Assembly: GCA_045587745.1 (NCBI GenBank)
Contig: JAZNCU010000072.1
Span: 13,069 to 77,068 of the forward strand
DNA length: 64,000 bases
Direction: 5' to 3'
Source: Eubacteriales bacterium
GTDB taxonomy: Bacteria; Bacillota; Clostridia; Oscillospirales; CAG-382
Part shown: positions 7,516 to 18,081 of the stretch, one piece after another
How positions within the stretch are numbered: the first letter of the stretch is position 1
Layout: every line of letters begins with the position of its first letter
The notes under the pieces: generated by a model
What the model was told of the DNA's origin: nothing
The model's database searches: none
Seen by the model: only the letters and a program-made list of their open reading frames with translations
Program-made: the position numbers and the translations under genes

Positions 7516-9843
7516 ATGCCTTTTGGAAAACTCATTATTTCCGTAAGACAGGGCTCGGATTCCCTGCCGATAAAGAATTGCCGTGTGAGGATCGACGGCC
7601 CCGACGGTGTACTGCTTTTTGAGACCGAGATCATCTATCCCCTGCCGGGGGACGAGGTACGCATCGAAACGCCGCCGATTGCGCTATCGCTCAATGAGGC
7701 CAACACCGTCATCCCTTACTCCACCTGCAACGTGCATATACGGGCAGAAAACCATTTCCGCCTCGGCATATTCGGGGTACAGCTTTTTGAGGACAGGACG
7801 GCTTCGCTGACCGCCGAGCTCGTTCCGCTTCCCTCGGGTGACGATTCTCCCGAGAACGAGCCCGAGCTACGCATAGATATACCCGAGCATCAGCTTTTCG
7901 AGAGCGCAGGCGGACGTACGCCCTACCCGCCCGAGGCAAGCACGGCATTCCTTGAATACGAGCCTGCCGTGCCTGCGGTAACCTCGCCTAACGTTTTTGT
8001 GCCCGAATCGGTTACGGTGCATATGGGCGCACCCGACGCCGATGCGGAAAACATAACCGTTTCGTTCCTCGACTACCTCAAAAACGTGGCGTGCAGTGAG
8101 ATATATCCCACCTGGCCGGAGGAATCGCTGAGAGCAAATATAATCGCCCAATGCTCCATCATTCTAAACCGTGTTTATACCGAATGGTACCGTAGCAGGG
8201 GCTACGATTTTGATATTACCAATGACACCGCATACGATCAATCCTTTGTTAACGGGCGGAATATTTTTTCAAACATAAGCGATATCGTAGACTCGTTATT
8301 CAATACGTTCATTACCCGCCCCGGCTCGGTTGAGCCGTTGTTCGCCCAATACTGCAACGGCACGACGAGCACCTGCGCAGGGCTTTCGCAATGGGGTACC
8401 GTTTCGCTTGCGAACAGCGGGCTTTCGTACCGTGAGATACTTGAGTTTTACTTTGGAGACATCGTAATATCCGAAACTGACGACATCCGATCGAGCGAGG
8501 GCTCGTTTCCGGGCTACACCCTACGTCCGGGAAGCAGAGGAAGCGACGTTCTTCTCATTCAGGAAAAGCTCAATCGGATCGCAATAAACTTCCCCGAGAT
8601 TCCGCTTAACAACACCACCGGCGTTTACGATGAATACACACGGCTTGCAGTGGAGGTGTTTCAAAGGCTTTTTTTGCTTCCTGTGACAGGGAATACCGAC
8701 AAAGCGACGTGGTATCGGATAGGATCGATATACGCATCGGTAAAAAGGCTGGCAGAAATAACGAGCGAGGGGCTGAGAGCGAGCTACAACAGTCAGCTTT
8801 ACCCCGGAAAGCCGCTCGAAAACAGCTCCAAGGGAAGCGAGGTACAGGAAATTCAGTTTTATCTCTACCGTATTTCTTTTTTCAACAATGCGGTAACGGC
8901 TCCCCGTATAGACGGAATATACGGAAGCAATACAAGAGATGCCGTAATCAGCTTTCAAAAGGCGTATAATCTGTCCCAAACGGGTATAGTAGACGAGGAA
9001 ACCTGGAACAAGATAGTTGCGGTATACAACGGCTCGAAGGAAAACATAGATGCGCCTCTCGCAACACAGCAGACCGAGCCCTGGGACGGCGCACCGCTTT
9101 ACCGAGGCGACCGTGACAGGCGTGTGGAATACATCCAGACGGCACTCAATGAGATACAAAACGTTTTCGTTATAATTCCCGAGCAGGTGGCAAACGGAAT
9201 CTTCGGCGCAGTAACCGAGAACGCCGTGAATTTATTTTCACAGCTTTTCGGGCTTCCGCAAAACGGCCATATCGACGAGACGCTTTGGAACAAGGTCAAC
9301 CAATTATACGTGGCGGTTTCCTCGGGCTGTGTTTTTGCAAACAGCGCAAGTGCAGGTACACAGCCATACCCGGGAAGCGAAATTGCTCAAGGTGACAGCG
9401 GCAAAAACGTAAGATATATTCAGGAAAAAATAAACCGCATTTACGATTCGATACCCTACGTCGGCTCGCTTGATGTCGACGGAGTGTTCGGCAGCTCCAC
9501 TCAGGCATCGGTCGATACGCTGAGATACGTGTTCGGGCTGACTCAGGGCGGCAGTGTGGATGAAACCACGTGGCTGCTTATAAACTATATTTTTTCGGCG
9601 GTGGAAAACGGATGCCTGCCTCTCTCGGGTGCCGAGACGACGGTTTTTGCTTACAGCAGCGGTATATCCGCCAGAGATCTCAAGGAGCTGATGCGAAAAA
9701 ACGGCATAAGGGTTTCGTCAATGCCGCATTTCGGTTTATCGAGCAAAAGGGCTCTGATGCGCTGGCAGAGCGAAAACGGGCTGCTCCCCACGGGCGAGCC
9801 CGATAACGAAACTCTGCGTATATTATTGCGTAAAATGCGGTGA
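7516..9843 (+). CDS. SpoIID/LytB-domain protein with about five C-terminal PG_binding_1-type repeats (SleC-like cortex-lytic candidate)
   Basis: 775-aa ORF. The central region DYLKNVACSEIYPTWPEESLRANIIAQCSIILNRVY...YDQSFVNG...FAQYCNG fits the SpoIID pattern. From about nt 8515 onward there are repeated ~65-aa units of the type G-S-x-G-x-V-x-x-I/L-Q-x-x-L-N...DG-I/V-F/Y-G...T...AV..FQ...L...G.VD..TW. I see no N-terminal signal peptide. Confidence 0.6.
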   Translation: MPFGKLIISVRQGSDSLPIKNCRVRIDGPDGVLLFETEIIYPLPGDEVRIETPPIALSLNEANTVIPYSTCNVHIRAENHFRLGIFGVQLFEDRTASLTAELVPLPSGDDSPENEPELRIDIPEHQLFESAGGRTPYPPEASTAFLEYEPAVPAVTSPNVFVPESVTVHMGAPDADAENITVSFLDYLKNVACSEIYPTWPEESLRANIIAQCSIILNRVYTEWYRSRGYDFDITNDTAYDQSFVNGRNIFSNISDIVDSLFNTFITRPGSVEPLFAQYCNGTTSTCAGLSQWGTVSLANSGLSYREILEFYFGDIVISETDDIRSSEGSFPGYTLRPGSRGSDVLLIQEKLNRIAINFPEIPLNNTTGVYDEYTRLAVEVFQRLFLLPVTGNTDKATWYRIGSIYASVKRLAEITSEGLRASYNSQLYPGKPLENSSKGSEVQEIQFYLYRISFFNNAVTAPRIDGIYGSNTRDAVISFQKAYNLSQTGIVDEETWNKIVAVYNGSKENIDAPLATQQTEPWDGAPLYRGDRDRRVEYIQTALNEIQNVFVIIPEQVANGIFGAVTENAVNLFSQLFGLPQNGHIDETLWNKVNQLYVAVSSGCVFANSASAGTQPYPGSEIAQGDSGKNVRYIQEKINRIYDSIPYVGSLDVDGVFGSSTQASVDTLRYVFGLTQGGSVDETTWLLINYIFSAVENGCLPLSGAETTVFAYSSGISARDLKELMRKNGIRVSSMPHFGLSSKRALMRWQSENGLLPTGEPDNETLRILLRKMR

Positions 9844-9984
9844 CTGAGGGGACTTTTTTGCTGAAAAGGCGTGTTTCGTATTGACTTTGAGCAGCTGTGC
9901 GAGTATACTTTAGGATGTGTTTTTGTATAAAAAGGGGGGATCATTCTGAAAAGCGGAGAGGAGAAGAGTGGGCATCTTCACAGA

Positions 9985-10722: not shown

Positions 10723-11730
10723 ATGGACAGAACTTTTATTCCCGAGGGTTATACCTCGGCACTCGGCATAAGACAGACCGAGGTTGCAATTAAAAAGGTA
10801 AAGGACTTTTTTGAGCGTGATATTGCCATCCAGCTCAATCTCACCCGTGTTTCGGCTCCTCTTTTCGTTGACAAGGCGAGCGGTCTCAACGATAACCTCA
10901 GCGGCAAGGAAAGACCGGTCGGCTTTGATATAGGCAGCGTAGGGGGTGATTTTGAGATAGTGCAGTCGCTCGCAAAATGGAAAAGGCTTGCACTCCGTGA
11001 TTACGGCTTCAAGCCGGGCGAAGGGCTTTACACCGATATGAACGCTATACGCCGTGATGAGGATACCGATAACATCCACTCGGTTTTTGTGGATCAGTGG
11101 GACTGGGAAAAAGTAATCACCGAGGAGCAGCGCAGCTTTGATACTCTCAAAAGGGCGGTAAAGCAGATATACACCTCGCTCCGCCATACCGAGACCTATA
11201 TAGCCGAGGACTACGATTTTGTTGAGAAGTTTCTGCCCGAGAAGATCGTTTTTATCACCTCGCAGGAGCTTGAGGACGAGTATCCCGACCTCACACCCAA
11301 GGAAAGGGAATACGCCGCAGTCAAAAAACACGGTGCGGTTTTCCTGATGCAGATCGGCGGTGCGCTCAGATCGGGCGAGAAGCACGACGGCCGTGCTCCC
11401 GACTATGACGACTGGTCGCTCAACGGTGATATTATCGTATATTATCCCGTGCTTGATATAGCGCTCGAGCTTTCGAGCATGGGTATCCGTGTCGATGCCG
11501 ACACACTCAAAAAGCAACTCGAGATTTCGGGCTGTACCGACAGAGCGGCACTCCCGTTCCACAAAATGCTTTTGAACGGCGAGCTTCCTCTTACTATGGG
11601 CGGCGGTATCGGTCAGTCAAGGATGTGTATGTTCTTCCTCCGCAAGGCACACATCGGTGAGGTTCAGTCCTCCTGCTGGCCGAGCGAGATGCTCGAGCTC
11701 TGCAAGGAAAAAGGCGTTCAGCTGCTGTAA
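10723..11730 (+). CDS. asnA: Aspartate--ammonia ligase (asparagine synthetase A)
   Basis: 335-aa ORF. The length and the motifs (IRQTEVAIKKVKDFFE, SVFVDQWDWEKVI, GGGIGQSR) are typical of AsnA. Confidence 0.9.
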   Translation: MDRTFIPEGYTSALGIRQTEVAIKKVKDFFERDIAIQLNLTRVSAPLFVDKASGLNDNLSGKERPVGFDIGSVGGDFEIVQSLAKWKRLALRDYGFKPGEGLYTDMNAIRRDEDTDNIHSVFVDQWDWEKVITEEQRSFDTLKRAVKQIYTSLRHTETYIAEDYDFVEKFLPEKIVFITSQELEDEYPDLTPKEREYAAVKKHGAVFLMQIGGALRSGEKHDGRAPDYDDWSLNGDIIVYYPVLDIALELSSMGIRVDADTLKKQLEISGCTDRAALPFHKMLLNGELPLTMGGGIGQSRMCMFFLRKAHIGEVQSSCWPSEMLELCKEKGVQLL

Positions 11731-11836: not shown

Positions 11837-12772
11837 TTATGCTTTGCCGTTGCAGCCGAGAACGTTGACGAGCTTGTGCTTAACAAGAGTCTTGATGTTC
11901 TCACGAGCGGGCTTGAGGTACTGTCTGGGATCGAAGTGATCGGGGTTTGCATTGAAGTGCTCACGGATAGCAGCGGTCATTGCAAGACGGAGGTCGGAGT
12001 CGATGTTGATCTTGCAAACTGCCATGGAAGCAGCCTTGCGGAGCATATCCTCGGGAATACCGATAGCATCGGGCATTCTGCCGCCGTTAGCATTGATAAT
12101 GTTAACGTACTCGGGAATAACGGAGGAAGCGCCGTGAAGAACGATGGGGAATCCGGGAAGTCTCTTTTCAACCTCTTCGAGAATATCGAATCTGAGCTGA
12201 GGCTTCTGACCGGGCTTGAATTTGTATGCGCCGTGGCTGGTGCCGATTGCGATAGCAAGGGAGTCAACGCCGGTCTTTTCAACAAATTCCTGAACCTGAT
12301 CGGGATCGGTGTAGGAAGCATCCTTCTCACTTACGTTAACGGCATCCTCGATGCCTGCAAGACGTCCGAGCTCACCCTCAACAACAACGCCGTGTGCGTG
12401 TGCATACTCAACTACCTGCTTGGTAAGAGCGATGTTATCCTCAAAGGAGTGGTGAGAGCCGTCGATCATAACGGAGGTAAAGCCGCCGTCAATGCAGGAT
12501 TTGCAAAGCTCAAAGGTATCGCCGTGGTCGAGGTGAAGAGCGATGGGAAGACCGGTCTCCTCAATAGCAGCCTCAACGAGTTTTACGAGATAGGTGTGGT
12601 TAGCATACTTTCTTGCGCCCGAAGAAACCTGAAGGATAAGGGGAGCATTCTCCTCCTTTGCAGCCTCGGTGATACCCTGGATGATCTCCATGTTGTTAAC
12701 GTTGAACGCACCGATAGCGTAGCCGCCCTTGTAGGCTTTTTCGAACATTTCTTTGGTGTTTACAAGTGCCAT
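11837..12772 (-). CDS. fba: Class II fructose-1,6-bisphosphate aldolase
   Basis: 311-aa ORF with GAFNVNNME, LHLDHG and VLHGASS motifs. A TTGACA-17-TAAACT promoter lies at 12839-12811 on the minus strand. Confidence 0.9.
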   Translation of the reverse strand: MALVNTKEMFEKAYKGGYAIGAFNVNNMEIIQGITEAAKEENAPLILQVSSGARKYANHTYLVKLVEAAIEETGLPIALHLDHGDTFELCKSCIDGGFTSVMIDGSHHSFEDNIALTKQVVEYAHAHGVVVEGELGRLAGIEDAVNVSEKDASYTDPDQVQEFVEKTGVDSLAIAIGTSHGAYKFKPGQKPQLRFDILEEVEKRLPGFPIVLHGASSVIPEYVNIINANGGRMPDAIGIPEDMLRKAASMAVCKINIDSDLRLAMTAAIREHFNANPDHFDPRQYLKPARENIKTLVKHKLVNVLGCNGKA

Positions 12773-13017: not shown

Positions 13018-13977
13018 ATGAAAAGGGTTATTTGTTTTTTGATCATTTCGCTGATGTGCTTATCGCTTTTTGCATGCCGAGATACAGGTGATACAGGCTC
13101 GGAGAGCGTTTTTTCGGACGCCTTATCCACAGAAGATTCAGGAATCTCCGAGGACCTTGCTTCTGCCGAAGCTCTTATAGAACAGGGAGAATACGAGCAG
13201 GCATACAAACTGCTTTACGGCATCCGTCAAAACGAAAAAGCTGCCGAGCTGCTTTCGGGCTTTAAGGTGCTTCCTCTCAAAATAAGGGGAAACGGCACAT
13301 CGTGGATTCTGTATACCGATTTCAAATGCGATAACACCTACGATGAAAACGGCTTGCTTACAGGAAAAACAGAGGTTTCGAATCACAATTGCACCGAAGT
13401 ATTTACCTATACCTACGACGATCAGGGCAGACTCATTACCGAGAAGCGGGTGAAAAAATTCGAGGGTGAGTCAAAAAGCTACACCGAATATAATTCCTAC
13501 ACATACAATGAGCACGGTGACGTAGCAAGCTTAGAGAACAGCGACCTCGGCTTTACCTACCGCATAGATTACGAATACACCTACAGCGAGGACGGAAAAA
13601 TCCTGTCAGTCACCGACCTATCGTCCGAAGAGACTACACGCTATGTCTATAACGATGCAGGACAGCTCATCGAAAAAGCAAATGAATCCGCCGTCTATCG
13701 ATACACCTACGATAATAACGGCAATCTCATAAAGGAAACGATAAACGAGGATTACGAGGCACAAAACAGCATGACGGAGTATACCTACGATTCCGACGGC
13801 CGTCTGATCCAAACGGTAACAACCTCCACACATTCGGGCAGCAAACAATCCGCCTCCTGCAAATATGAATACAACGAGTACGGCATTCTCGTCAAAGAGA
13901 TTCATAGCGACGTAGAGCGCCAGGACTATACTCAGGCTTACTCGGATTTTGTGTATTTCTATTCACCGCAGGAATAG
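13018..13977 (+). CDS. Small YD-repeat lipoprotein
   Basis: It has a signal peptide with a lipobox (LSLFAC, Cys20). Seven YD-type repeats follow: YTYDDQGRLI, YTYNEHGDVA, YTYSEDGKIL, YVYNDAGQLI, YTYDNNGNLI, YTYDSDGRLI, YEYNEYGILV. A TTGACT-17-TATAAT promoter lies upstream. Confidence 0.6.
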   Translation: MKRVICFLIISLMCLSLFACRDTGDTGSESVFSDALSTEDSGISEDLASAEALIEQGEYEQAYKLLYGIRQNEKAAELLSGFKVLPLKIRGNGTSWILYTDFKCDNTYDENGLLTGKTEVSNHNCTEVFTYTYDDQGRLITEKRVKKFEGESKSYTEYNSYTYNEHGDVASLENSDLGFTYRIDYEYTYSEDGKILSVTDLSSEETTRYVYNDAGQLIEKANESAVYRYTYDNNGNLIKETINEDYEAQNSMTEYTYDSDGRLIQTVTTSTHSGSKQSASCKYEYNEYGILVKEIHSDVERQDYTQAYSDFVYFYSPQE

Positions 13978-13994
13978 CGGATATACAGCAATAC

Positions 13995-14039
13995 AAAAAG
14001 GATGCAAAAGCTCAAAACGGGCTTTTACATCCTTTTTTT
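13995..14039. terminator. Bidirectional terminator between convergent genes
   Basis: AAAAAGGATGCAAAAGC-loop-GCTTTTACATCCTTTTTTT forms a long stem with A/T runs on both sides. Confidence 0.65.
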
Positions 14040-14044
14040 GTTAT

Positions 14045-16324
14045 TTAATCGTTATTGCGGATGACTGCACGCCTTATCTTACCCGAGATTGTTTTGGGAA
14101 GCTCGTTTACGAACTCAACTCGTCTGGGGTATTTGTACGGTGCGGTACGGGTTTTTACGTAGTTCTGAATCTCCTTAACGAGGCTATCCGAGGGAAGGGT
14201 TTCCTTGGTGAGTACGATAGTAGCCTTGACGATCTGACCTCTTGTCTCATCGGGAACGCCGGTAATGGCGCACTCAAGCACGTAAGGAAGCTCCATAAGC
14301 ACGCTCTCGATCTCAAAGGGACCTATGCGGTAGCCGCTCGATTTGATAACGTCGTCAACTCTGCCAACGTACCAATAGTAATCGTCCTCGTCCTTCCAGG
14401 CGGTGTCGCCGGTATGGTAAAATCCGTCGTGACGTACCTCGGCGGTCGCCTCCTCGTTGAGGTAATAGCCGTCGAACAGACCTACCGCTTTGCCATTATC
14501 GGTACGGATAACTATCTCGCCTACCTCACCGACACTTGCCTCGGTTCCGTCATCCTTCATGATCATTACCGAATATGCGGGACTCGGTCTGCCCATTGAG
14601 CCGGGCTTGGGCTCCATGCCGTAGAGGTTGCCCACCGTGAGGGTGGTCTCGGTCTGGCCAAAGGATTCCATCAGCTTGACACCGGTATGCTCATAGAATT
14701 TATTATAGACCTCGGGGTTGAGCGCCTCGCCTGCGATAGTGGCGTACTTGAGGGAGGAAAGATCGAATTTTGAAAGGTCCTCACGGATAAGAAAACGGTA
14801 TATCGTGGGAGGTGCACAGAAGGTGGTTATGCCGTATTTTTTGAACATAGGAAGCAGCGTGGAGGCATCAAATCGGTCGAAATCGTAAACGAAAACTCCC
14901 GATTCGCAAAGCCACTGTCCGTATAGCTTACCCCAGAGTGCCTTGCCCCAGCCTGTATCGGCAACCGTAAAATGAAGTCCGTCGGGCTCGACGTTGTGCC
15001 ACCAGCGTGCAGTGACGATATGCCCGAGAGGATAGGTAAACGGATGGATGGCCATTTTGGGATATCCCGTGGTGCCGGAGGTAAAGAACATAACCGAGGG
15101 ATCGGTCGCAAGGGTATCGGCACGGTCAAAATGCGAGCTGCAGCGCATAAAGCCGGTATCGAAATCGAACCAGCCGTCACGGGGCTCCCCGACGATGATC
15201 TTGGTTTTGAGCGAGGGGCATTTTTCGGCGGCGGCAGACGCCTTCTCGGCACAGCCGTCATCCGAGGTACACACGATAGCCGAGATATGACCGGCATTGA
15301 AGCGGTACTCAAAATCGTGCTCCTGAAGCTGGTGAGTTGCGGGAACGACCACTGCGCCGATTTTATGCAGCGCAATGATGGATACCCAGAACTGCCAATG
15401 CCGCTTCAGCACAAGCATTACACGGTCGCCCTTTTGGATGCCGAGCATGGAAAAATAGTTGGCCGCCTTTGAGGAAAGACGGGAAATATCACGGAAGCTG
15501 AATTCCTTTTCGCTGCCGTCGTTGCCTACCCACATAACCGCACGCTTATCGGGAATTTTCTCTGCAAGCGCATCCACAACGTCGTAAGCGAAATTGAAGT
15601 TATCGGGGTAATTAAAGGTAATGTCGGTAAGCTTTCCGTCGGCATCAACAGTCTCGGTAACGAAGCTCCTGTAGATACAGCCTGCGTATTTGTCAACGAG
15701 AGGCTTGGTAAGCTTTTTGGCAGGAACGGGAACAGGCTCATCGGCAATATCGTCGCCATCCTCCTTGAAAACGACAGCGAGGAACACGCAATCCTCGCCT
15801 CCGACCGCAACCATTCCGTGGCTGTGGGAGGAATCATAGTAAACCGAGTCGCCGGGATTCATAACGTAGATATGATTCTCGAGCTGAACCTTAAGGTGTC
15901 CCGACAGAATGTAGTTGAACTCCTGTCCCTTGTGGGCGGCAACGGCAATAGGACCCTCCTCAAGCTCTTTGTCATACTTTGCGGTGACGATAAAGGGCTC
16001 GCTCTTACGGTTACGGAGCATGGGAGCTACGTGCCGATAATTGAATCCCTCCTCGCGGCGGATGGGCATTCCCTCCCCCTTACGGGTGAGGTTGTAAAAC
16101 CAGAGCTTGGGGTCAATACCCGAAACGAGCTCCGAAATATCCATTCCGAGCGTCTGGGAGCATTTGTAGAGAAAAGTAAACGAAAAATCATCATTTCCGT
16201 TCTCAAGGTAAAGATACTCATCAACCGAGATGCCGCATTTTTCGGCCATTACCTCGGCAGTAATATCAAGGTTTTCCCTCGCCCATCTGAGACGAGCGGC
16301 GATCATTGTTGTTTGTTGTTCCAT
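14045..16324 (-). CDS. Fusion protein: N-terminal HTH(XRE)+cupin module joined to an AMP-forming (medium-chain type) acyl-CoA synthetase
   Basis: Track ORF 14045..16438, trimmed to MEQQTTMIAARL (ATG 16324-16322, GGAGGG RBS). The first 38 track codons lie over the T-box terminator. The HTH_3 region is ITAEVMAEKCGISVDEYLYLENG. The cupin region is HKGQEFNYILSGHLKV...PGDSVYYDSSHSHG. The adenylate-forming core shows FFTSGTTGYPK, FGQTE, YHTGD, SSGYRIGPFEIES and PKTISGKIRR. Confidence 0.8.
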   Translation of the reverse strand: MEQQTTMIAARLRWARENLDITAEVMAEKCGISVDEYLYLENGNDDFSFTFLYKCSQTLGMDISELVSGIDPKLWFYNLTRKGEGMPIRREEGFNYRHVAPMLRNRKSEPFIVTAKYDKELEEGPIAVAAHKGQEFNYILSGHLKVQLENHIYVMNPGDSVYYDSSHSHGMVAVGGEDCVFLAVVFKEDGDDIADEPVPVPAKKLTKPLVDKYAGCIYRSFVTETVDADGKLTDITFNYPDNFNFAYDVVDALAEKIPDKRAVMWVGNDGSEKEFSFRDISRLSSKAANYFSMLGIQKGDRVMLVLKRHWQFWVSIIALHKIGAVVVPATHQLQEHDFEYRFNAGHISAIVCTSDDGCAEKASAAAEKCPSLKTKIIVGEPRDGWFDFDTGFMRCSSHFDRADTLATDPSVMFFTSGTTGYPKMAIHPFTYPLGHIVTARWWHNVEPDGLHFTVADTGWGKALWGKLYGQWLCESGVFVYDFDRFDASTLLPMFKKYGITTFCAPPTIYRFLIREDLSKFDLSSLKYATIAGEALNPEVYNKFYEHTGVKLMESFGQTETTLTVGNLYGMEPKPGSMGRPSPAYSVMIMKDDGTEASVGEVGEIVIRTDNGKAVGLFDGYYLNEEATAEVRHDGFYHTGDTAWKDEDDYYWYVGRVDDVIKSSGYRIGPFEIESVLMELPYVLECAITGVPDETRGQIVKATIVLTKETLPSDSLVKEIQNYVKTRTAPYKYPRRVEFVNELPKTISGKIRRAVIRNND

Positions 16325-16371
16325 AAAAACCCTCCGATAAAATGATATTACCGTTGTCGGACAAGTGAATA

Positions 16372-16606
16372 TAAAAAGCCTCATCTGCAATGAGATGAGG
16401 CTAAAAGCATCATTATACCACTCATTTGCCACGCCCAACAGCGCAATTCCCTTTGTTACGGCGGAAGCTCCGTCATACCCTACCGAAAACCCTCGGGCAT
16501 GCAGCTCAAAGGTGATAAATCCGTCCTTCCGTTACTGCCTCGCACCAAACGGCAGCTCTCTGAAACGGGTGAGATACGGACCCGTGTCCTTATCCTCGCT
16601 TTTATT
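16372..16606 (-). promoter_or_regulatory. T-box riboswitch leader (specifier read as AUC, Ile) with terminator/antiterminator
   Basis: The minus-strand RNA shows these elements in order. The K-turn base is AGC-GAGGAU-AAGG...CCUU-UGA-GCU. The AG bulge and distal loop are CAGAGAG-CUGCC-GUUUGGUGCGA-GGCAG. CCGUAAC is an F-box-like element. The antiterminator is AAUGAG[UGGUAUA]AUGAUGC-UUUUA-GCCUCAU-CUCAUU. It overlaps the terminator AGCCUCAUCU-CAUUGC-AGAUGAGGCU-UUUUU (16402-16372). The element is about 235 nt long. Confidence 0.85.
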
Positions 16607-16612
16607 GCGACT

Positions 16613-16641
16613 ATATTAGCACACCAAAAAAGTGTTGTCAA
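16613..16641 (-). promoter_or_regulatory. Sigma-A-type promoter driving the T-box leader
   Basis: The minus strand reads TTGACA (16641-16636), a 17-nt spacer, then TAATAT (16618-16613). Confidence 0.6.
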
Positions 16642-16717
16642 TAGTTTTTTTGCAATTTTTCTTTACTTTGCAAGCATTCCGATGTATAATTGACTCACCA
16701 AACGAAGGGAGAAGTAT

Positions 16718-17353
16718 ATGAGCGATATTATAGTAAAAAAGGCCGTTGTGGGTATGCTGTCCACTAACTGTTATCTGCTCAGGCGCAAGGATTCCCGGGA
16801 CTGTATAGTTATTGATCCGGGTGACGATATTACGGTGATTCTGGATGCGCTCCACAGAATAGACGGTATTTGCCGTGCAATTTTCCTCACTCACGGACAT
16901 TTTGACCATATTCTTGCGGTGGGCGACCTGCGTAACGTCAACATTCCGGTTTGCATCCACAAGGACGATGCACATTTTTTGACCGAGCGGGATACCTTCA
17001 GCTCAATGATCCACCACGATCCCCGTCCCTTTGAAGCTCCCGATATCGTTTTTGATAAGGATGGGCTCTACAAGGCATGCGGATTTGAATTTTACGTTAT
17101 GCATACTCCCGGCCACACCGACGGAAGCGTTTGCTATATGTTTGACGATATGCTGTTTACGGGAGACACTCTGTTCAAAAACAGCGTAGGCACCACCGAT
17201 TTCGGGGGCGATCCCGAGAAGCTTCGCAAATCGCTCCGTATGCTTTACAATCTGCCCGGGGACTATGAGGTCTATCCCGGACACGATTCGGCAACGACTC
17301 TGTTTGATGAACGCCGCAACAATCCGTTCCTTAAGCAGTTCGGTCAGGAGTAA
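16718..17353 (+). CDS. MBL-fold metallo-hydrolase (glyoxalase II-like)
   Basis: 211-aa ORF with THGHFDH, HTPGHT and a C-terminal GH motif. A TTTACT-17-TATAAT promoter lies upstream at about 16662-16690. Confidence 0.8.
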   Translation: MSDIIVKKAVVGMLSTNCYLLRRKDSRDCIVIDPGDDITVILDALHRIDGICRAIFLTHGHFDHILAVGDLRNVNIPVCIHKDDAHFLTERDTFSSMIHHDPRPFEAPDIVFDKDGLYKACGFEFYVMHTPGHTDGSVCYMFDDMLFTGDTLFKNSVGTTDFGGDPEKLRKSLRMLYNLPGDYEVYPGHDSATTLFDERRNNPFLKQFGQE

Positions 17354-17355
17354 TT

Positions 17356-18081
17356 ATGGAACTCTCACGGGAAATCGACCTGCTCAGGCAGTATATAGAC
17401 GAGGCAAAAAGAATAGTTTTCTTTGGCGGTGCGGGTGTTTCGACCGAAAGCGGAGTTAAGGATTTCCGCTCCGAGGACGGAATTTACTCGATGAAGTTCG
17501 ATTACCCTCCCGAGGAAATGCTCTCGCACGATTTTTTCTTTACGCACACCGAGGAGTTTTACAGGTTTTACCGAGGCACACTGCTTAAACCGGGAATCCA
17601 GCCGAACAAGGCGCACTATGCACTCGCAAGGCTTGAGCAAACGGGAAAGCTTACCGCAATCATTACCCAGAACATCGACGGGCTGCACCAAAAGGCAGGG
17701 AGCAAAAGGGTTTTTGAGCTTCACGGAAGCGTGGACAGGAATCGCTGTGTCAAGTGCGAAAAATTCTACACGTATGACGAGCTGCCTGCCGACGCTGTAC
17801 CGAGGTGCGGGTGCGGCGGGCTGATAAAGCCCGAGGTGGTGCTGTACGGCGAGCCGCTCGACAACAGCGTTATTACGGATGCCGTTCACGAGATTCTTCA
17901 CGCCGATACGATGATAGTGGCCGGAAGCTCGCTCACCGTTTACCCTGCCGCAGGGCTTTTACGCTATTTTGGCGGAAAGAGGCTGATACTCATCAATCGG
18001 GACGCTACACCCTACGACAATGCCGCCGACCTGGTCATCCGCTCGCTCGTGGGCGAAACGCTGGATAAGGTTATCAAATGA
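17356..18081 (+). CDS. cobB: NAD-dependent protein deacylase (Sir2/CobB family)
   Basis: 241-aa ORF with GAGVSTESGVKDFRS, QNIDGLH and Zn-ribbon cysteines (CVKC...CGCG). It starts 2 nt after the stop of the MBL gene. Confidence 0.85.
   Translation: MELSREIDLLRQYIDEAKRIVFFGGAGVSTESGVKDFRSEDGIYSMKFDYPPEEMLSHDFFFTHTEEFYRFYRGTLLKPGIQPNKAHYALARLEQTGKLTAIITQNIDGLHQKAGSKRVFELHGSVDRNRCVKCEKFYTYDELPADAVPRCGCGGLIKPEVVLYGEPLDNSVITDAVHEILHADTMIVAGSSLTVYPAAGLLRYFGGKRLILINRDATPYDNAADLVIRSLVGETLDKVIK

Follow-up and report, generated by a model that had tools for sequence, protein, structure and literature searches.

The window analyzed here is a stretch of 64,000 nt from contig JAZNCU010000072.1 (assembly GCA_045587745.1), and all positions given without a locus name are counted within it. 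On its minus strand lies a gene for a 759-aa protein in which a helix-turn-helix (HTH)-like/cupin module is fused to an AMP-forming acyl-CoA synthetase, and ahead of this gene is a leader RNA that we take, with near certainty, to be a T-box with an isoleucine specifier. In the protein Pfam recognizes HTH_3 (residues 12-66), Cupin_2 (129-185), AMP-binding (254-621) and AMP-binding_C (671-749), in agreement with the HTH/cupin/acyl-CoA synthetase fusion that the original prediction for this locus had placed under the control of the leader. The features of the gene and its leader are:

16636..16641, minus strand: -35 hexamer TTGACA, from a promoter scan; a consensus -35 also precedes nearly all orthologous leaders
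16613..16621, minus strand: extended -10 TG-C-TAATAT (TAATAT at 16618-16613), with a 17-nt spacer to the -35
16388..16605, minus strand: T-box leader, from a full-length RF00230 match
16497..16606, minus strand: Stem I (K-turn base, specifier loop, AG bulge, distal loop), from our own covariance model R1, 88.2 bits
16513..16516, minus strand: specifier AUC (16516-16514) and the A that follows it (16513), from the RF00230 and R1 alignments
16389..16426, minus strand: antiterminator (T-box sequence) with the 7-nt bulge UGGUAUA at 16420-16414, from the RF00230 alignment and the fold
16373..16402, minus strand: intrinsic terminator with a 10-bp stem AGCCUCAUCU/AGAUGAGGCU, loop CAUUGC and a U-run, from a terminator scan and the fold
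16330..16335, minus strand: ribosome-binding site GGAGGG, 5 nt ahead of the ATG at 16324, read from the sequence
14045..16324, minus strand: coding sequence of the 759-aa fusion protein, from the open reading frame (ORF) and Pfam
15755..16324, minus strand: N-terminal module (residues 1-190), an acidic HTH-like five-helix domain and a cupin, from Pfam, AlphaFold and Foldseek
14078..15565, minus strand: AMP-forming medium-chain acyl-CoA synthetase domain (residues 254-749), from Pfam, NCBIfam and the match to PDB 3ETC
13995..14032, minus strand: probable terminator of the gene, GGAUGUAAAAGC...GCUUUUGCAUCC followed by U5, read from the sequence

The transcript probably starts at about 16606-16605, a position deduced from spacing alone. 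The inner hairpin of the probable terminator past the gene was flagged on the plus strand, at 14006-14026.

A default Rfam 15 scan of the 64-kb window returned no match, because the gathering score for T-boxes (RF00230) is set there at 93 bits. When matches are reported by E-value instead, all 219 model positions (1-219) align to 16388-16605 of the minus strand, with a score of 72.3 bits and an E-value of 7.9e-16. The low score is explained by a derived T-box sequence, which reads GAGUGGUAUAAUG where GAGUGGUACCGCG is usual; this form, with the element UGGUAUAAUG, is common to the whole clade of the window. Stem I contains the K-turn base AGC...GCU, the basal helix AAGG/CCUU, the AG bulge CAGAGAG and the distal helix and loop CUGCC-GUUUGGUGCGA-GGCAG, and thus has the parts that dock the tRNA elbow. 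The specifier loop has UU-AUC-A on its 3′ side and ACACGG on its 5′ side, so that the codon, a purine and the strand of the basal helix follow each other directly as AUC-A-CCUU (16516-16509). Folded alone, 16428-16389 forms the antiterminator with the predicted 7-nt UGGUAUA bulge at -7.3 kcal/mol, whereas the terminator (16402-16377 and the U-run) folds at -15.7 kcal/mol with a z-score of -5.3. The two overlap by 14 nt and are mutually exclusive, and the difference in stability makes termination the default and means that the antiterminator needs stabilization from outside. The minimum free energy fold of the whole leader has a z-score of -1.3, as expected of a switch with alternative folds. 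The leader RNA is a class I T-box, ordinary in mechanism and derived in its T-box sequence. The original prediction had named it a T-box with the isoleucine codon AUC-A immediately 5′ of the CCUU strand and had listed promoter, K-turn base, AG bulge, distal loop, antiterminator and terminator as landmarks; all of these were located, and the mutually exclusive folds that it proposed were recovered. No tRNA genes are present in the 64-kb window, and a SAM-II match at 16639-16691 (22 bits, E 0.065) was dismissed as an A-rich chance match.

The family to which the 759-aa protein belongs is large, the best 120 clusters being 58-99% identical to it over 98-100% of the query length. We compared the window with 74 genomic loci, nearly all from gut and rumen metagenome-assembled genomes (MAGs); L-numbers denote fetched loci with relatives of the 759-aa gene or of its module. 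The E-value mode of Rfam placed T-boxes ahead of the orthologs in seven of eight diverse loci. A Stem I covariance model (R1) was then built from 15 ortholog leaders and run on all loci, and it found Stem I on the gene strand just upstream of the gene in the window and in 53 of the 74 loci. At the specifier position of these 54 leaders stands AUC in 52 and GUC (Val) in two, so the survey of orthologs proposed by the original prediction came out in favor of co-occurrence of the isoleucine T-box with the fusion gene. The specifier is followed by A in 41 leaders, by C in 10 and by G in three. The leaders with C after AUC are those of L070, L043, L051, L029, L041, L032, L039, L027, L035 and L038, and the T-box of L082 has the same base; L049 carries a further AUC T-box that is truncated at the contig end. 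In an alignment of 59 distinct leaders, which was fitted to the model and is biased toward its structure, 99.2% of the Stem I cells are paired and 12 of the 13 pairs show compensatory changes. This level of pairing was reached by none of 500 shuffles, shifted registers pair only 26-48%, and covariation in the basal helix is seen in a plain MAFFT alignment too. Of 49 leaders, 48 continue from Stem I to a T-box sequence and 47 go on to a terminator and its U-run. Orthologous leaders span 60-99 bits against RF00230; those of the window, L001, L014, L016, L019 and L035 score 60-88 bits and, because this is under 93, routine annotation misses the T-boxes of the window's clade.

In principle, the specifier could be read in a shifted frame as UCN (Ser), which would hold in every leader. 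This frame was rejected on the evidence of control T-boxes and of the isoleucine leader peptides described below. Read in the same register, a GUC T-box from the same set of loci precedes valS, a UGG T-box precedes a TrpB-like gene in two loci, a CUG T-box precedes a leuA-like gene and a UUC T-box precedes a gene for a PaaK-type ligase; this last reading was taken from the Rfam alignment, the alignment to our own model being off by one base. The codon agrees with the downstream gene in all four controls.

The enzyme under this control belongs to the AMP-forming ligases. The highest-scoring NCBIfam model is MbcS (NF047394, 456.4 bits), followed by acetate-CoA ligase (366 bits), and the closest solved structure is PDB 3ETC (686 bits, E 4e-205, 56% identity over 531 aligned positions), which is Macs of Methanosarcina acetivorans (MacsMa). 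The protein keeps MacsMa residues Trp259, the YHTGD motif, Gly459, Tyr460, Arg490, Lys519, Tyr525 and Tyr527, and K749 of its PKTISGK motif is presumed to be the catalytic lysine. Gly stands at the position of Acs Trp414/416 (...ESFGQTET in the translation) together with the alternative Trp259 pocket, the arrangement looked for in this type of AMP-binding fold. Lys461 is replaced by Arg, a substitution that has only a modest effect in MacsMa (PMC10455477). Judged by homology, the C-terminal ~550 residues are a Macs/MbcS-type AMP-forming ligase. MacsMa favors 2-methylbutyrate as its acyl substrate; it adenylates acids from propionate to octanoate, and the adenylates of many other acids are not passed on to the CoA thioester (PMC10455477). 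MbcS of Staphylococcus aureus uses 2-methylbutyrate and isobutyrate, is poor on isovalerate and butyrate and does not use acetate (PMC10026030), a selectivity that mirrors the specifiers found, which are Ile and Val and never Leu. Judged by this homology, conversion of 2-methylbutyrate to 2-methylbutyryl-CoA is a likely activity of the window's ligase as well.

The genes behind GUC leaders form a separate paralog subfamily, in which L046 is 84% and the second copy of L048 is 64% identical to the second copy of L050, while the AUC-controlled first copy of L050 groups with L051 and the first copy of L054. Tandem paralogs of the fusion gene were seen at L050:539-5259, L054:2193-6832 and L048:1-2945, and the copies at L048 are separated by a Val (GUC) T-box. 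This arrangement suggests that one tandem copy is specialized for 2-methylbutyrate and isoleucine and the other for isobutyrate and valine.

Three orthologs (L021, L026 and L057; 56-59% identity) have no T-box and carry an isoleucine-rich leader-peptide attenuator in its place. The elements, identified by inspection of ORFs and terminators, are:

L021:2737-2970: Ile leader-peptide attenuator
L026:1546-1784: Ile leader-peptide attenuator
L057:2754-2973: Ile leader-peptide attenuator

Each has a consensus promoter, a ribosome-binding site and an ORF of 28-30 codons with 8-9 Ile per peptide, for example MALVFSIAIIIISSIIITIDNASLRCAETA. The peptides keep the core IAIII..IIITIDN, an internal hairpin spans the Ile codons, and the peptide ORF is followed, ~20-30 nt before the ligase start, by a hairpin rich in GC (-19 kcal/mol in L021) and a U-run. 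They came to light in a palindrome search upstream of the loci without a T-box, which found no common operator. On their sequence features these elements are classical leader-peptide attenuators tuned to Ile codons, and since orthologs of one gene have a T-box in some loci and a leader peptide in others, two unrelated sensing devices have converged on it.

A further isoleucine context is found on a 1.84-Mb contig, where an ortholog 60% identical to the window protein is preceded by an AUC T-box of 99 bits, above the gathering score, and heads a run of ilvB, ilvN, ilvC, ilvD, leuA, a second leuA/cimA-like gene, leuC, leuD and leuB:

L082:9400-22283: T-box, fusion gene and ilv-leu operon

The T-box terminator and the gene of this locus are separated by an ORF of 55 codons (9735-9902), hydrophobic and I/L-rich, with another hairpin and a T-run behind it; this could be a second, tandem attenuator or encode a small membrane protein.

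The step that would follow acid activation is represented in other neighborhoods. At L046, L050, L051 and L068 the order is T-box, ligase, P-loop protein, 4Fe-4S ferredoxin, VorB and VorA, with gaps of 0-50 nt; the parts are a 233-aa P-loop protein, a 73-aa ferredoxin with two [4Fe-4S] sites, VorB (544 bits, cut-off 399) and the beta subunit of a 2-oxoacid:ferredoxin oxidoreductase of the VOR type. L055 (Lentisphaeraceae) and L072, a locus of the split form described below, show the same linkage of ligase and VOR without a T-box.

L050:268-8016 (also at L046, L051, L068, L055 and L072): operon of ligase(s), P-loop protein, ferredoxin, VorB and VorA

The P-loop protein, which is MinD/ParA/CooC-like, accompanies the VOR cluster in every case; does it serve in metal or cluster insertion? 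An AMP-forming ligase costs two ATP equivalents and is effectively irreversible. As an irreversible ligase and a VOR would be induced together by Ile or Val starvation, the direction of flux should be from acid to acyl-CoA, 2-oxoacid and amino acid. The catabolic flux from branched-chain amino acids to acids in gut Clostridia runs through a phosphotransacylase and a kinase (Ptb/Buk) with a gain of ATP (PMC2903421).

Rumen and gut anaerobes have been known since the 1960s to form Ile, Val and Phe by carboxylation of 2-methylbutyrate, isobutyrate and phenylacetate, and many cellulolytic rumen and gut anaerobes require or gain from these ‘isoacids’. Phenylacetate in particular is the classic rumen precursor of Phe via reductive carboxylation. 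The genome paper on the rumen methanogen M. ruminantium gives reductive carboxylation of 2-methylbutyrate as the probable route to Ile and cites Robinson & Allison 1969 on anaerobic rumen bacteria (PMC2812497). At L030:5380-7461, on the minus strand and 2 kb from an Ile-controlled gene, we noticed a canonical T-box (123 bits) with the specifier loop GAA-UUC-A (Phe). It precedes a gene for a PaaK-type phenylacetate-CoA ligase (542 bits) and one for an ACT-pair protein, which suggests salvage of Phe from phenylacetate in parallel to the isoleucine case. On these gene linkages, the rule that a ligase is controlled by the T-box of the amino acid one carbon longer than its acid substrate would thus hold for at least three amino acids (Ile, Val and Phe).

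Our results suggest the following course of events. A strong promoter of the constitutive type would start a leader of ~280 nt, in which the terminator (-15.7 kcal/mol) would form by default and stop transcription. When uncharged tRNA-Ile accumulates, its anticodon would pair with AUC in the specifier loop of Stem I and its free ACCA end with the UGGU of the bulge, which would stabilize the weaker antiterminator and allow the gene to be transcribed. The ligase would then convert, most probably, 2-methylbutyrate, an abundant fermentation acid of gut and rumen, to 2-methylbutyryl-CoA, which a VOR-type 2-oxoacid:ferredoxin oxidoreductase encoded outside the window would reductively carboxylate to 2-oxo-3-methylvalerate, and transamination would yield isoleucine. 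The sister paralogs under Val T-boxes would probably serve the same route with isobutyrate. From the computed RNA architecture, the specifier and its conservation, the homologies and the gene linkages we infer how the leader responds to tRNA, which acid the ligase uses, in which direction the flux runs and what the N-terminal module does. We consider it likely that the element is a transcription-attenuating tRNA-Ile T-box which gates a 2-methylbutyrate-CoA ligase for isoleucine salvage, and the route from 2-methylbutyrate to Ile is probable. The same salvage had been proposed by the original prediction, and it has gained comparative backing from the AUC and GUC leaders, the Ile attenuators, the identity to MacsMa and the operons with VOR and ilv-leu genes.

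Several points weigh against isoleucine salvage under T-box control. The leader, at 72.3 bits, is under the RF00230 gathering threshold of 93 that defines membership, and its specifier loop is without the usual GAA S-turn, the AGUA/GAA pair having been looked for; this motif is common in T-boxes and not universal. Ten orthologous leaders have C instead of a purine after the codon. The ligase, at 456.4 bits, misses the MbcS equivalog cut-off of 850, and therefore the identity of the substrate rests on the 56% identity to MacsMa. Linkage of ligase and VOR occurs in only 6 of the 74 loci, and tblastn found no VOR genes in the 64-kb window; housekeeping genes (miaA, an HlyD-like gene, yggS) lie downstream in the window's close relatives, so that for the organism of the window we infer the second step. 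L082 holds a complete de novo ilv pathway, and the ligase is therefore at most supplementary there. Finally, every step of the switch and of the pathway rests on computation.

The N-terminal module requires separate consideration. Its HTH_3 match scores 30.6 bits against a Pfam cut-off of 23, and residues 1-190 are under strong purifying selection, with R11, R16, Y37, E41, G43, H131, G133, E135, D159, Y163 and H169 invariant; H131-x3-E135...H169 is found in 54 of 54 family members. A search of the PDB with the module sequence gave no matches. For the AlphaFold model of the module (pLDDT 87.8), the best Foldseek matches include HppE (1ZZ9, E 3.7e-14), HEPD, MPnS and Psf4, which are Fe(II) enzymes composed of an HTH-like helical domain and a cupin, as well as an uncharacterized ‘HTH_3 regulator’ (1Y9Q). 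The facial triad of HppE is H-x3-E...H, with the same spacing as in the window protein, and the HTH-like domain of HppE is not known to bind DNA. The modeled two-domain fold and the sequence-invariant 2-His-1-Glu triad together point to an HppE-like architecture. The HTH-like region has a net charge of -6 in the window protein and of -1 to -7 in 54 of 54 members. Its putative recognition helix (consensus ..EEYL.LE.G, median charge -3) carries a negative net charge in every split member checked and in nearly every fused one, two members being neutral. Neither a basic or polar surface for DNA contact nor a conserved operator in 52 promoters was found.

The module also exists apart from the ligase. 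At six loci it is a separate gene of 183-208 aa with its own stop, followed by a ribosome-binding site and a new start for the ligase, and these split modules are equally acidic and have the same invariant residues. In a search of 1.84 billion representatives, 463 clusters were found at E <= 1e-10, many of them free-standing proteins of ~185 aa with the same signature, and the triad is kept in 60 of 70 free-standing relatives. The free-standing genes, which are probably annotated as XRE regulators, were followed by a ligase gene after 13-83 nt in all the cases examined; on the four contigs with neighborhood information the ligase gene follows within 13-30 nt on all four. At L078, L080 and L081 the module is followed by an AMP-binding ligase of ~550 aa and at L077 by a fragment with the N-terminal motif of the family:

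L078:1905-4163: free-standing module and Macs-type ligase genes
L080:5001-7236: free-standing module and Macs-type ligase genes
L077:156-935: free-standing module and Macs-type ligase genes

The variant of L080 and L081 is abundant (234 index blocks); C10 peptidases lie nearby, and the context looks like Bacteroidota.

Candidate operators were sought upstream of the gene. The pair TTGCAA-N12-TTGCAA, proposed in the original prediction as the operator, does exist at 16673-16650, and its 12-nt spacer contains the -35 of the divergent promoter. It was rejected as an operator: TTGCAA occurs 8 times in 52 upstream regions, two of these copies being in the window alone, and the pair is present in only one of the 52. 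The motifs that are conserved upstream (ATTATACA and AAGTAAA) correspond, on the other strand, to promoter elements of the divergent metallo-beta-lactamase (MBL)-fold hydrolase gene, namely its extended -10 and its -35. An operator in the promoter spacer was likewise rejected, since CTTTAGTGTGCTATAAT recurs in some clades only and is mostly the extended -10. No conserved operator was found across the 52 promoters, which argues that the module is a conserved partner of the ligase family and, on the comparison of its fused, split and free-standing forms, an obligate one. It is most likely, from its sequence and predicted fold, a small-molecule-binding regulatory or auxiliary domain rather than a DNA-binding one, and DNA binding by it is unlikely. 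The ACT protein beside the Phe-controlled PaaK gene of L030 offers a suggestive analogy to feedback sensing by the module.

Three other explanations of the locus have to be weighed. The one closest to ours keeps the T-box and the ligase chemistry and has 2-methylbutyryl-CoA prime anteiso branched-chain fatty acids: Ile scarcity would exhaust the Ile-derived primer, and exogenous acid would be salvaged for the membrane and not for protein. MbcS, the best NCBIfam match, has just this role in the supply of branched-chain fatty-acid primers (PMC10026030), and the ligase gene of the window, like that of most loci, is solitary, without an oxidoreductase gene beside it. We regard this explanation as unlikely, because a ligase and a VOR in one operon would be senseless if both made the same acyl-CoA with the VOR draining Ile, and because the gene of L082 heads an ilv-leu biosynthetic operon. 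The sensing of tRNA charging, by T-box or leader peptide, is moreover a hallmark of genes for amino-acid supply, and the Val and Phe parallels fit amino-acid synthesis. It is also conceivable that the ligase activates another acid that feeds Ile, for example propionate, which would reach the ilv pathway via propionyl-CoA and 2-oxobutyrate. The substrate range of the oxidoreductase is unreadable from sequence, the ligase of L082 lies ahead of ilvBNCD, which would consume 2-oxobutyrate, and MacsMa does adenylate acids from propionate to octanoate; however, its adenylates of propionate and of less-favored acids are generally not carried to the CoA thioester (PMC10455477). The Val-specifier paralogs would be left unexplained, the adjoining oxidoreductase is VorB-type and the substrate-contact residues of MacsMa are conserved, which makes this proposal very improbable.

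The original prediction had further seen in the protein a trigger enzyme in the manner of BirA or PutA, whose XRE HTH would bind TTGCAA-N12-TTGCAA (16673-16650) and repress its own or the divergent promoter. A match of HTH_3 above its cut-off (30.6 against 23 bits), the ‘HTH_3 regulator’ 1Y9Q among the best fold matches and the position of the split-form module gene just upstream of the enzyme gene, where local regulators often lie, would all be in keeping with such a role. However, the pair is found in the window only and no operator is conserved in the 52 promoters; the net charge of the HTH region is -1 to -7 and that of its recognition helix mostly negative; all fused and split members checked have the H-x3-E...H triad, as do 60 of 70 free-standing ones, and HppE-type enzymes are the top fold matches; the T-box already accounts for control of the gene; and the stand-alone forms adjoin ligases. 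We consider a DNA-binding trigger enzyme hardly credible, and the isoleucine salvage reading, with the module as a partner of the ligase, is the one that we prefer.

Among the genes nearby, a divergent operon at 16718-18081 on the plus strand encodes an MBL-fold hydrolase and a Sir2/CobB NAD-dependent protein deacylase. The hydrolase is the divergent neighbor in 17 loci, and the deacylase (310 bits, above its cut-off) adjoins the ligase gene in the window only. Acylation of the lysine in PKTxSGK (K749 in the 759-aa protein) is the classic switch of AMP-forming ligases, and the presence of the deacylase gene next to the ligase gene may be meaningful or due to chance. Convergent with the ligase gene is a gene at 13018-13977 (plus strand) for a 319-aa RHS/YD-repeat protein, which looks like a fragment or an orphan piece of a toxin system. 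Farther out lie asnA (10723-11730) and, on the minus strand, a class II fructose-bisphosphate aldolase gene (11837-12772). At L019:5583-5700 (minus strand), in an Oscillospiraceae MAG, the Rfam Fusobacteriales-1 RNA (RF02920, 80 bits against a gathering score of 52) lies just downstream of the ligase gene.

A broader proposal, which we make tentatively and hold to be possible and somewhat short of probable, is that of a regulon in gut and rumen anaerobes in which sensors of tRNA charging (Ile, Val and Phe T-boxes and Ile leader peptides) induce CoA ligases that capture 2-methylbutyrate, isobutyrate or phenylacetate for amino-acid synthesis by reductive carboxylation, with the acidic module as a new non-DNA-binding partner of the branched-acid ligases. 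Within such a regulon the module could be a sensor for feedback by the end product or the 2-oxoacid, or a catalytic helper, for example a 2-methylacyl epimerase. What is new is the pairing of a T-box with a Macs/MbcS-type ligase, the partner module, the convergent control by leader peptides and the links to VOR and ilv-leu operons. A full-text literature search found no paper that connects T-boxes with acyl-CoA synthetases, VOR, 2-methylbutyrate or phenylacetate, although a T-box catalogue may still list the family; it found nothing on the HTH-cupin-ligase fusion, no report of an N-terminal module or T-box for MbcS and no assignment of a bacterial activating enzyme, or of its regulation, for isoacid carboxylation. 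The locus thus provides a candidate gene family for isoacid activation that is tied by the cell itself to Ile/Val charging, and opens to genetic study a pathway whose biochemistry has been known since the 1960s. Testable predictions follow for the substrate range, tRNA-dependent readthrough and isotope tracing. The gene classes known under T-box control are widened, a whole T-box clade lies under the Rfam threshold and is hence unannotated, and the annotation of a large ‘HTH-cupin’ family as transcription regulators is probably wrong.

Each part of the system resembles a known one and departs from it. Isoleucine (AUC) T-box leaders are known before ileS and ilv operons, and the window leader shares with them the parts of Stem I, Stems II, IIA/B and III, the UGGN-bulged antiterminator against a terminator and the AUC-A specifier. 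In contrast to them it gates an acyl-CoA ligase and not an aminoacyl-tRNA synthetase, a gene of de novo biosynthesis or a transporter, and it has a derived T-box sequence, lacks the GAA S-turn and is sub-threshold. The attenuators of L021, L026 and L057 are like ilv leader-peptide attenuators in that the gene is preceded by a small ORF containing Ile-codon runs and by a terminator; the window has none, and they are a convergent alternative in sister lineages. MacsMa (3ETC) is 56% identical to the ligase and its acyl- and CoA-binding residues are kept (Lys461 as Arg), however it is archaeal, and its alignment starts at residue 47 of the 580-residue chain with no counterpart of the 200-aa HTH-like/cupin module. 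S. aureus MbcS (NF047394) is the best NCBIfam family, and its selectivity for 2-methylbutyrate and isobutyrate mirrors the Ile and Val specifiers, whereas the window protein is below the equivalog cut-off and MbcS feeds fatty-acid primers. With BirA and PutA the protein shares the combination of an enzyme with an HTH-type domain and differs from them in its acidic HTH, in the lack of a conserved operator and in a module that would be a conserved partner subunit of the ligase. The HTH-like and cupin fold (Foldseek E ~4e-14) and the triad spacing are those of HppE, HEPD, MPnS and XRE-cupin proteins (1ZZ9, 6B9R, 1Y9Q). HppE, HEPD and MPnS are phosphonate enzymes that use O2 or peroxide, which is implausible in strict anaerobes, and the module is only ~20% identical to them, with TM scores of 0.4-0.5. 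Unlike these enzymes, the module of the window family is fused to a CoA ligase or encoded beside one.

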